A model generated the notes under the pieces. The model saw nothing but the letters and a program-made list of their open reading frames with translations, ran no database searches and was not told where the DNA came from. The position numbers and the translations under genes are program-made. Below are positions 3,302 through 59,560 of a DNA stretch of 64,000 nt, piece by piece. The DNA is taken from the NCBI GenBank assembly GCA_029258885.1, contig JAPDJW010000001.1, positions 64,001 to 128,000 on the forward strand. The letters run 5' to 3'. This DNA comes from Thermoproteota archaeon. GTDB lineage: Archaea > Thermoproteota > Thermoprotei > Thermofilales > B9-G17. Each line of letters begins with the position of its first letter. Positions within the stretch are counted from its first letter, which is position 1.

Positions 3302-3376
3302 GGGCCCGTAGCTTAGCCTGGCCGGAGCATCCGGCTGATAACCGGAAGGTCGTGGGTTCGAATCCCACCGGGCCCA
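3302..3376 (+). tRNA. tRNA-Ile(GAT)
   Basis: GGGCCCG/CGGGCCC acceptor, TCCGG-CT GAT AA-CCGGA anticodon arm, TTCGAAT T-loop, no intron. Confidence 0.97.
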
Positions 3377-36663: not shown

Positions 36664-36755
36664 GGGGCCGTAGCCCAGCAAGGCGACAAGCCCTGGAAAG
36701 GTAGGGCGTCCGGCTCCAGACCGGAAGGTCGGGGGTTCAAATCCCTCCGGCCCCA
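36664..36755 (+). tRNA. tRNA-Trp(CCA) with an 18-nt D-loop intron (36681-36698, position 17/17a)
   Basis: TCCGG-CT CCA GA-CCGGA; BHB with central CCAG/CTGG and bulges CA|A and AA|A. Confidence 0.92.
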
Positions 36756-57197: not shown

Positions 57198-58229
57198 ATG
57201 GGAGTAAATCTTAAGGATTTAGTACCGCGTAAGGAAATAGAATTAGCGTATTTATCTGGGAAGATTATAGCAATAGATGCCTATAATGCACTATATCAGT
57301 TTTTAGCTACTATTAGGCAGCCTGATGGAACGCCTCTAATGGATTCCAGGGGTAATATAACTAGCCATTTAAGCGGATTGCTTTACCGTACCGTTAATTT
57401 CTTAGAGTTGGGTATAAAGCCTGTATACGTATTCGATGGAACACCTCCCGAGTTGAAGAGCGCTGAAATTATGAAACGTATACAACTGAAGGAAGAGGCT
57501 ATGAAAAAATATAAGGAAGCATTGGAGAGAGGAGATTTAGAGGAAGCTAGAATATATGCACAGCAGACATCTAGGCTCACGGATAGGATGGTTAATGATG
57601 CTAAGGTTTTGCTTGATTTGCTTGGTGTGCCTTGGGTTCAGGCGCCTTCTGAGGGTGAGGCTCAAGCTGCATATATGGCTTTAAAGGGCGATGTATGGGC
57701 AACAGCAAGCCAAGACTACGACTCCCTACTCTACGGAACACCAAGACTTGTTCGAAACATCACGATTTCGGGCAGGAGGAAGCTCCCTAGAAAAAATGTA
57801 TACATTGAGATTTCTCCTGAATTAATTGAATTAAAGAACGTCTTAGAAACTCTTGGAATAACAAGGGAACAATTGATAGCAATAGGTATCCTCTTAGGGA
57901 CGGACTATAATCCGGGTGGGGTAAAGGGTATAGGACCTAAGAAGGCCTTAAAATTGGTAAAACAGTATGGAACCATAGAGAAGATAGTCCCGATAGTTGG
58001 GAGAAAAGCTTTTCCTGTTGATCCATTAGAGATAGAGAAAATATTTCTTAAACCTAAGGTTACTGATAATTATACTTTAACATGGAAAGAGCCTGACGAG
58101 GACGGTTTAATAAGTTTTCTATGCGATGAACACGACTTCTCTCTTGAAAGGGTTAGGAAAGCCGTGGAAAGAGCTAAGAAGGCTATGGCCGCAACGATGA
58201 GGCAGGCGAGCCTAGAGACATGGTTCTGA
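57198..58229 (+). CDS. fen: Flap endonuclease 1 (canonical)
   Basis: MGV, IDAYN.LYQFL..IRQPDG.PL, EGEAQ, SQDYD, GTDY, PIP box QASLETWF. Confidence 0.96.
57588..57751 (+). repeat. 164-bp exact repeat, copy 2 (copy 1 at 42329-42492)
   Basis: Base-by-base identity. Confidence 0.95.
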
Positions 58230-58690
58230 ATAATTATTGGTATGCAATTGAAGTAGTACACGCGTATGGACACCCCAACGTTAAAGCTACGCATAGATCT
58301 ACATTCGAGATAACGAGGGAAAGTTTTCTCACGGAAAGGGGAGACTGTATAATAGCCGTAAACGCAGATAAGGCAGTTAATGATTTTTCCGAAAAATTTA
58401 AAAACATATGTAGGAATGAGAACAGTATAATAATAATTTTACTTCTGGCGGATTCGAATTTTGATGTTATCATTGCAAGAGGACATAGGTTTCTTAAATT
58501 ATCCAGTAATATCTCCATTGTAGTTAGGAAAAGCGAGTTTATTGATGAGCGTACGCTCGCAGTTTGCGCTTCAAAGGCTGCAAGGGATCTTAAGCGTGAC
58601 TTAGTGATAATGCTCAGGAATCCGAACATCCTACTGAAGGCTATACTAATAGCCTTTGCTCCGAAGAAAAGTGGGCCCGGTGGGATTTGA
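58220..58690 (+). CDS. DUF371 family protein
   Basis: A.GHPNV.ATH.STFEIT.E..LT..GDCII...ADKA, S..RKS..ID.RT. Confidence 0.85.
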
Positions 58691-58771
58691 ACCCACGATT
58701 CGGGCTCAACCTTCCTAAGGCTGAGACCCCCGCCGTGTGAGGGCGATGTCCTACCGCTAGACCACGGGCCA
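58672..58771 (-). tRNA. tRNA-Val(CAC) with a 28-nt variable-loop intron (58699-58726, position 46/47); position 1 encoded as T (U1:C72)
   Basis: TCGCC-CT CAC AC-GGCGG; BHB with central CGGG/CCCG and bulges GG|T and AA|T; spliced variable loop GGGTC. Confidence 0.92.
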
Positions 58772-58783
58772 AAATAAGTATTG

Positions 58784-59560
58784 TTATGTTGCTATATAAC
58801 TTTTGCGAGAACATCTTCCTGTTTCTTCGCAAGCTATTTTTTCGCGTATTTGTCTAGCTAAGCCTAAAATAGTTTGAAGTTCGTACATATTTATCAATGA
58901 TCTTCCAAGAATACGCTTTATGACTAGTTTCGTTTTCTGTCTTTTAGACACCGCTAGCTTCAAATGATCCAGTATATCATCAATGAAGCTATAGAACCTA
59001 GATAATCCAATATTGTTTTCTCGGATCGCTATTAGTCTGCCTTTCCTCATGGGGAGCGTACTTTCATAATATATGAATTTGAATATTTCATAAAATATTA
59101 TGGTGGCAGCATGAGATAAATTCAAGATAGGGTACTCCGGATTAGCTGGAATTGTAACTATTATATCGCATAAGGCTAGTATATCGTTTGTAAGTCCTAT
59201 ATCCTCTCTTCCGAAAATTATAGCTACTTTACAGTCGTCTAAGGATAGAAGCTTTAAAGCTAATTCCTCTGGTGTAATTGCCTGTCGAAGAATATTCTTT
59301 ATTCCTCCTTTCTTACCTGTAGTTCCCACAATATAGTCTACTCCTGCCAAGGCATCTTCTAGTCTTTCGACGATAACAGCTTTTTTTAGGATATCATCGG
59401 CATGAACAGAATACACTTGTGCTGTTCTACCCAATCTAGCGAGAGGTGAAACTATATACAATTCGCTTAAACCAAAATTCTTCATATTTCTTGCTACGTA
59501 CCCTATATTTATTTCAAAAAGAGGCTGGTAAAGAATAATTCTAATATTCTTCAATTTCAA
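58784..59560 (-). CDS. trmJ: SPOUT tRNA C32 2'-O-methyltransferase (TrmJ family)
   Basis: NIG.VAR.MKNFG, FGRED.GL, IPA...YP.LNLSHA. Confidence 0.88.
   Translation of the reverse strand: MKLKNIRIILYQPLFEINIGYVARNMKNFGLSELYIVSPLARLGRTAQVYSVHADDILKKAVIVERLEDALAGVDYIVGTTGKKGGIKNILRQAITPEELALKLLSLDDCKVAIIFGREDIGLTNDILALCDIIVTIPANPEYPILNLSHAATIIFYEIFKFIYYESTLPMRKGRLIAIRENNIGLSRFYSFIDDILDHLKLAVSKRQKTKLVIKRILGRSLINMYELQTILGLARQIREKIACEETGRCSRKSYIAT

Follow-up and report, generated by a model that had tools for sequence, protein, structure and literature searches.

The closest known system to the tRNA genes described here is the 5' editing of mitochondrial tRNAs in Acanthamoeba, Dictyostelium, chytrid fungi and Physarum. 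In this process, mismatched nucleotides at positions 1-3 are removed, and the gap is refilled by a Thg1-like protein (TLP), DdiTLP3 in the case of Dictyostelium (PMC6471195). In vitro, TLPs from archaea and bacteria restore missing 5' ends on tRNAs of any isotype by Watson-Crick templated addition, with kinetics measured on 5'-triphosphate transcripts (PMC3061083, PMC6471195). The prokaryotic enzymes occur widely among archaea and bacteria, and their natural substrates have been termed unknown from 2010 to 2025 (PMC3061083, PMC6471195, 10.1101/2025.10.12.681950). Leaderless tRNA transcripts are a feature of Nanoarchaeum equitans, in which RNase P is absent and transcription starts with a purine, preceded by a pyrimidine, at a fixed distance from the promoter. 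In tRNA-His, archaeal TLPs add G-1 opposite C73.

Here we describe tRNA genes of a deep-sea vent archaeon, a free-living thermophile, that have much in common with the mitochondrial systems: non-pairing letters are found only in the first three 5' positions of many isoacceptors, the 3' template strand is intact, the affected set varies between lineages, and a TLP-type 3'-5' polymerase is encoded. Unlike in mitochondrial editing, these genes are located in the chromosome of a free-living archaeon, with no organelle involved. In addition, judging by promoter spacing, the mismatched letters are apparently not transcribed; in this reading a 5' nuclease step would be unnecessary, and as the substrate would carry a 5' triphosphate, so would ATP activation. 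The proposed reaction is the one performed in vitro by Methanosarcina MaTLP (5AXK), Bacillus thuringiensis BtTLP and Ignicoccus IhTLP, that is, Watson-Crick filling of positions 1-3; however, whereas the natural source of truncated tRNAs for those enzymes is unknown, the archaeal genome would itself supply obligatory substrates. Outside mitochondria, no natural source of truncated tRNAs for TLPs appears to be known, and the archaeal pattern seems to resemble mitochondrial editing in a new setting. The fixed promoter distance, the purine start and the pyrimidine at -1 are shared with Nanoarchaeum, but transcription there begins at position 1 or -1, whereas here it would begin 1-3 nt inside the tRNA, and an RNase P RNA is present. 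The enzyme family and the chemistry are those of G-1 addition to tRNA-His, except that the proposed addition completes the normal stem of non-His tRNAs. A literature search, of incomplete coverage, found no published case of tRNA genes without their 5' nucleotides in archaea.

The window, that is, the whole stretch of 64,000 nucleotides that was analysed (G000:C3:64001-128000), belongs to a metagenome-type assembly of 2.10 Mb in 26 contigs (the genome under study, G000), with a marker-gene completeness of 99.9% and an rRNA G+C content of 63-64%. The order is represented in our collection by 41 species genomes, and the family by the genus of G000 and one other genus, G001. The tRNA census of G000 comprises 45 genes, 43 of them Rfam tRNA matches and 2 found otherwise, and all acceptor stems were read by hand. 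Anticodons were also read by hand, and the isotype calls of ARAGORN were not used. With default settings, this program misses the tRNA-Val(CAC) gene because of an intron in the variable region; when introns are allowed, it assigns a wrong isotype, Pro(agg), to this gene and mis-types many others of G000. The features of the locus and of the related loci are collected in Table 1.

Table 1. Features of the tRNA-Val(CAC) locus and of related loci. Positions without a contig label refer to the window.
Feature	Position	Strand	Basis or remark
tRNA-Val(CAC)	58771-58672	minus	Rfam tRNA match, 48.7 bits; cmscan marks pair 1:72 as non-standard
tRNA-Val(CAC) as encoded, G2 to discriminator A73	58672..58770	-	Rfam match and sequence
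Canonical position 1 of tRNA-Val(CAC), a T that cannot pair with C72	58771..58771	-	Same letter in independent contigs
Anticodon CAC of tRNA-Val	58739-58737	-	Sequence read by hand
Intron of tRNA-Val(CAC), about 29 nt, non-canonical site in variable region	58700..58728 (approximate borders)	-	Insertion relative to the Rfam model, and fold
BRE/TATA element aaaagttatata of tRNA-Val	58793..58804	-	Best PWM score (13.8) among the tRNA promoters of G000
T-rich stretch cttttctt directly 3' of A73 of tRNA-Val	58664..58671	-	Sequence
Upstream SpoU-type RNA methyltransferase ORF	58784-59560	-	
DUF371 ORF	58220-58690	+	
CAT tRNA with T12786 opposite C72	12713..12786	-	Same T-GGCCCG / CGGGCCC-A ends and same 22-nt TATA spacing as tRNA-Val
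tRNA-Ile(GAT)	3302-3376		
tRNA-Trp with D-loop intron	36664-36755	+	Loop CCA in comparison with the Rfam alignment; tRNA-Ser(gga) according to ARAGORN
Archaeal RNase P RNA, type A	G000:C3:46453-46758		Score 153 bits
Single Thg1-like gene of G000, 264-aa product	G000:C2:186889-187683		PF04446 and PF14413
DUF72 (PF01904) gene	G000:C2:187686-188399 (L193:6687-7400)	+	
Genes of G000 with 1 nt missing (7): CAT (Ile2-like), Lys(TTT), Gly(TCC), Arg(CCT), Val(CAC), Arg(TCG), Ala(GGC)			
Genes of G000 with 2 nt missing (4): Ala(CGC), Arg(CCG), Arg(TCT), Pro(GGG)	Pro(GGG): C2:396156	Pro(GGG): -	
Genes of G000 with 3 nt missing (2): Gly(GCC), Pro(CGG)			
Pro(GGG) with 5' defect in a control genome	G011:C1:850770-850893 (locus L166)	-	AT-GGCCG against CGGCCCC
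Val(TAC) and Val(GAC)	G000:C2:375824-375927 and C2:347371-347474		Near-identical paralogues
Ser(TGA) and Ser(GGA)	G000:C3:23600-23685 and C2:422154-422239		Near-identical paralogues
Arg(GCG)-like gene of a Desulfurococcales MAG (JALWZC010000024.1)	L181:4333-4401	-	gggTGGCCCG against CGGGCCC

The tRNA-Val(CAC) gene begins with T58771-GGCCCG and ends with CGGGCCC(58673)-A58672, which gives an acceptor stem of 6 bp (GGCCCG/CGGGCC) with C72 (58673) unpaired. The preliminary description of this DNA had reported a tRNA-Val without G1, with U opposite C72, as well as a 22-nt promoter spacer and a run of T before G2. The sequence and the non-standard flag of cmscan confirm the former, and a direct count confirms the latter: exactly 22 nt (58792-58771) separate the last A of the TATA element from G58770, and the four bases preceding G58770 are T. 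A transcript from G2 to A73 is predicted to fold into a cloverleaf with the 6-bp acceptor stem and an extra hairpin (-46.6 kcal/mol, z = -2.65). The intron forms a 9-bp hairpin closed by GGG/CCC and is absent from intron-less orthologues in other genomes. CCA is not encoded at the 3' end. Archaeal transcription terminates at oligo-T, and by analogy the T-rich stretch that follows the gene is likely a terminator. The neighboring ORFs overlap the tRNA locus on both sides: the last six codons of the SpoU-type methyltransferase gene contain the tRNA-Val promoter, and the final 19 nt of the DUF371 ORF overlap the 3' end of the tRNA gene.

The tRNA-Val stretch is present in 20 public DNA runs from 17 studies of hydrothermal-vent and marine-sediment metagenomes; the same search turned up no RNA run. 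Independent contigs from four of these runs, which come from different studies and are not likely source samples, were compared over positions 58560-58900. Long contigs that cover 58677-58900 show 0, 0 and 1 differences, the single difference being located in the intron, and the other contigs, over 58560-58699, show none. Because three independent metagenome assemblies agree on these letters, T58771 and C58673 are real, and neither an assembly error nor the sequencing error in the CCC run that had been considered earlier accounts for the mismatch. A redundant intact gene had been considered as well, and a scan of the G000 assembly for any CAC anticodon arm next to a T loop found no second Val(CAC) gene. 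A functional gene without an encoded nucleotide 1 is the best explanation of these observations. Val(UAC) might cover GUG codons, so that tRNA-Val(CAC) alone need not be essential.

A second case is located in the same window. The tRNA with the anticodon CAT, in which T12786 is opposite C72, had been described as sharing both the defect and the promoter spacing of tRNA-Val, and this is borne out by the identical ends and the 22-nt spacer. It shares its acceptor and T arms, letter for letter, with tRNA-Ile(GAT), and it is probably tRNA-Ile2. In the remaining six tRNAs of the window, pair 1:72 is normal, as previously stated; this follows from the Rfam matches and from stems read by hand. One gene of the window that ARAGORN calls tRNA-Ser has the CCA anticodon of a tRNA-Trp and an intron in the D-loop (Table 1).

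The proposal that the missing G1 is a systematic feature holds well beyond the two genes for which it was made: 13 genes in G000 and five in the sister genus are affected. In each of the 13 genes, among the 45 of G000, the non-pairing letters occupy position 1, positions 1-2 or positions 1-3 only, and the rest of the stem is perfect. The 3' acceptor strands (CGGGCCC, CGGCCGC, CGGCCCC and CCGGTCC) do not differ from the strands of intact isoacceptors or orthologues, and a compensating change at position 72, 71 or 70 occurs in none of the 18 affected genes of G000 and G001. The tRNA-His gene of G000 encodes its G-1. Repair of Gly(GCC) requires the addition of G-C-G, and that of Gly(TCC) at least G1, plus C2 if transcription starts at G3. 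Because C at position 2 is required by Gly(GCC), and by Gly(TCC) in the case of a G3 start, untemplated addition of G is ruled out. Across 773 long ORFs, the codons read by affected single-copy genes occur at the following frequencies per thousand: ATA, 53; GCT and GCC together, 36; GGT and GGC together, 32; AAA, 29; AGG, 26; AGA, 24; and GTG, 11. The affected set thus includes the sole decoders of very common codons, so that the affected genes must be functional rather than dead.

In the genome of the sister genus, five of the 39 tRNA matches show the defect, each with 2 nt missing, namely, the CAT tRNA, Val(CAC), Val(TAC), Val(GAC) and Arg(GCG); no defect occurs in its Gly, Pro and Ala genes. 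The Val(CAC) orthologue, which reads tt-GCCCG, thus shows the same kind of defect, in line with the earlier reading, which had called for a survey of orthologues. Both genera have the defect in Val(CAC) and in the CAT tRNA, with 1 nt missing in G000 and 2 nt in G001. The trait is therefore family-wide, with affected gene sets that differ between the two genomes. The G001-type Val(CAC) was found again in three metagenome contigs, and a related Val(CAC) gene on a fourth contig, behind a similar promoter, has its GGGCCCG intact. In four control genomes from other families of the same order (G005, G009, G011 and G014), a single real 5' defect was detected among 164 tRNA matches. The contrast with 13 of 45 in G000 (Fisher p = 5e-9) is indicative only, given that related genomes are non-independent.

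The base composition and promoter distance at the 5' ends of the affected genes follow a regular pattern. In all 13 affected genes of G000, the first pairing base is a G that follows T or C; the conservative probability of a pyrimidine before the first G in every case, with G excluded by definition at the preceding position, is 9e-4. Intact genes of G000, for comparison, have a purine at -1 in 21 of 28 cases. Between the TATA octamer and the first pairing G there are 21-25 nt, most often 22-23 nt, in the 12 affected genes that were scored, and 22 nt by hand count in Pro(GGG). From the TATA end to position 1, intact genes mostly have 23-25 nt. Strong TATA matches before long ORFs of G000 form a sharp peak 22-23 nt upstream of the ATG, as expected for leaderless mRNAs, and the leaderless tRNA genes of G005 agree, with 21-23 nt between TATA and position 1. 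In the metagenomic relative whose Val(CAC) is intact, the TATA element is 2 nt farther from GCCCG than in the affected G001 form, so that 23 nt still separate it from the first G encoded in the stem. The combination of a pyrimidine followed by G at the first pairing base with a TATA spacing of 21-25 nt suggests that position 1 is probably not transcribed. In the case of tRNA-Val, the polymerase probably starts at G58770, with T58771 as position -1, outside the RNA. The earlier expectation that the promoter spacing predicts a start at G2 is upheld to this extent, the 22 nt of tRNA-Val matching the predicted start spacing of G000.

A candidate enzyme is encoded in the genome. The search for a Thg1-like protein suggested by the preliminary description yielded one such gene with intact catalytic motifs. 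Its product scores above the cut-offs for PF04446 (98.5 bits; cut-off 29.2) and PF14413 (34.3 bits; cut-off 26.3) and matches the solved Methanosarcina acetivorans TLP (5AXK) with E = 4e-54. The carboxylate motifs RVDGKGF (D35) and FSDEISF (D82, E83) are conserved, and these three acidic residues are the same in 5AXK. G001 also encodes one Thg1-like gene. Across the order, TLP genes are present in 23 of the 41 genomes, including families with complete tRNA genes (G005, G009 and G014), so that the enzyme is required by the model but is not diagnostic of the trait. The genes for the PheRS alpha and beta subunits are located upstream on the other strand, and HerA/NurA downstream; no nuclease or pyrophosphatase partner is evident in the neighborhood of the TLP gene of G000. 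The DUF72 gene that begins 2 nt past the TLP stop codon is probably co-transcribed with it.

Defects limited to 5' positions 1-3, an untouched template strand and the lack of compensation form a pattern that suits TLP refilling. Templated 3'-5' refilling of the missing 5' nucleotides by the TLP is the best explanation and, in our judgement, a probable one; we infer the start site, the nucleotide addition and the involvement of the TLP from the sequence. According to this model, the BRE/TATA promoter of tRNA-Val would direct initiation at G58770 (G2), and the primary transcript would be leaderless, with a 5' triphosphate and without G1, T58771 never being transcribed. The splicing endonuclease and a ligase would excise the intron from the variable region, the 3' trailer would be trimmed, and CCA would be added. 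The single TLP would then add one G to the 5' end, with the unpaired C72 as the template, restoring the 7-bp acceptor stem and producing the 5' end GGGCCCGUGG in place of the genomic TGGCCCG. The same route would serve the 12 further tRNA genes of G000 that lack 1-3 nt, and Gly(GCC), as well as Gly(TCC) if started at G3, would receive a templated C at position 2. More tentatively, about a quarter of the tRNAs of this family may be made through obligatory 3'-5' polymerisation: transcription would start 1-3 nt inside the tRNA, and the TLP, making use of the 5' triphosphate, would rebuild positions 3 to 1 on the 3' strand, with no involvement of RNase P, a nuclease or ATP activation.

Alternatively, the tRNA could work as encoded, either with the U1.C72 mismatch kept or with a G2 start, a 6-bp stem and a 5-nt 3' overhang. 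Some tRNAs tolerate one mismatched terminal pair (bacterial initiator tRNA carries C1.A72), the transcript from G2 to A73 still folds as a cloverleaf, and a mismatch-tolerant tRNA would suffice for cases of 1 nt such as tRNA-Val. Moreover, the location of the tRNA-Val promoter within the end of the SpoU-type ORF makes read-through transcripts with U1 possible, and the presence of an RNase P RNA in G000 does the same for a leader-containing route. However, six genes of G000 lack 2-3 nt, and all five of G001 lack 2 nt, so that stems of 4-5 bp would result in a thermophile with an rRNA G+C content of 63-64%; the identity pairs of tRNA-Gly at positions 1-3 would be lost; and selection for pairing would favour compensation at positions 72, 71 and 70, which is never observed. 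We therefore consider this reading unlikely, and function with a 6-bp stem, one of the two possibilities offered earlier, is disfavoured, given the 4-5 bp stems of the other genes and a position 72 that is never compensated. Slippage of the RNA polymerase on a GG start (reiterative initiation), a phenomenon well known at homopolymeric starts in bacteria, could add G without a 3'-5' polymerase. It would also suffice for the 1-nt cases, and seven of the 13 affected genes of G000, tRNA-Val among them, start with GG and need GGG. Nonetheless, slippage is unable to make the G-C-G of Gly(GCC) or to place a G before C2 in Gly(TCC), and it could not extend a single-G start, which is found in 11 of the 18 affected genes: six of G000, including Ala(CGC), Arg(CCG), Arg(TCT) and Pro(CGG), and every affected gene of G001. 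It also provides no length control, and ragged ends would be expected; we regard it as quite improbable.

It appears very improbable that the missing nucleotides are encoded elsewhere, in a tiny 5' exon behind a bulge-helix-bulge intron or in a split, trans-spliced 5' piece, as in other unusual tRNA genes of this archaeal group, even though non-canonical introns are common in G000. The 21-25 nt upstream of all 13 affected genes are A+T-rich and directly preceded by a normal BRE/TATA element, with the strength and position seen in intact tRNA genes, which leaves no space for an exon or a pairing leader, and no G-containing helix is visible upstream of 58771. The one gene that lends itself to such a reading is the Pro(GGG) of the control genome G011, which lacks a TLP; there the gene reads AT-GGCCG and is preceded closely by a GGGG hairpin. 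It is extremely unlikely that the gene is silent or in decay, or that the C/G run contains an assembly or sequencing error. The assembly is of the metagenome type and in 26 contigs, and Val(UAC) could in principle read GUG; but independent assemblies from other studies are identical, Val(CAC) is single in a 99.9% complete genome, the cloverleaf and the promoter are pristine, the G001 orthologue has the same type of defect, and sole decoders of very common codons are affected.

If refilling by the TLP is indeed the route, the genes of G000 and G001 would be the first natural substrates of a prokaryotic TLP to come from a cellular rather than an organellar genome, which would suggest that TLPs originally served to mend the 5' ends of tRNAs transcribed without a leader. 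The genes constitute a defined set of candidate substrates, 13 plus five genes that need 1-3 nt, with templated C included. Under this model, a genome with a repair enzyme can afford to lose the 5' ends of its core translation genes, the ratchet proposed for mitochondrial editing would extend to a free-living thermophile, and leaderless tRNA transcription would be linked to reverse polymerisation. A practical consequence concerns annotation, because gene finders for tRNA and automated pipelines will give such genes wrong scores or overlook them.

A search of G000 for type-T RNase P RNA (RF02357) found none, which matters little given that type A is present. Archaeal RNase P RNA was not found in either of the two genomes of family f5 (G005 and G012) or in those of genus g12 (G014 and G018). 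In G005 (loci L194-L228), which is 99% complete, the tRNA genes are leaderless in layout: the gap between TATA and position 1 is 21-23 nt in 32 of 41 tRNA genes, and a pyrimidine is found at -1 in 38 of 41. Family f5 is, in this respect, closer to Nanoarchaeum than G000 is. This may be a second lineage that, like Nanoarchaeum, transcribes its tRNAs without leaders and lacks an RNA-based RNase P.

The single defect among the control genomes, in the Pro(GGG) gene of G011, is the same as that of Pro(GGG) in G000. G011 is a closed, Thermofilum-like genome without a Thg1-family gene. Just upstream of its Pro(GGG) gene is the GGGG-containing hairpin caGGGGtaccgaaaaCCCTG, and a TATA box is absent at the usual distance; this gene may contain an intron at position 2/3 behind a 2-nt exon.

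A global scan of 185,579 species for the intron-less form T-GGCCCG...CGGGCCC, that is, for one acceptor type with T at position 1, matched four stretches and yielded no convincing further case. The match in a Thermococcus MAG is a tandem-repeat artefact, and two others, in low-coverage contigs of bacterial MAGs, are unconvincing. So is the fourth, in a Desulfurococcales MAG, where ggg directly precedes the matched stretch. This Arg(GCG)-like gene, in which a T looks as though inserted after the GGG run, is the sole archaeal match of the scan without a trivial explanation.

Two pairs of tRNA genes in G000 differ mainly in the anticodon. Val(TAC) and Val(GAC) share a 23-nt upstream segment and their introns, and in Ser(TGA) and Ser(GGA) about 30 nt of upstream sequence and the introns are identical, which points to recent duplication followed by anticodon shift.
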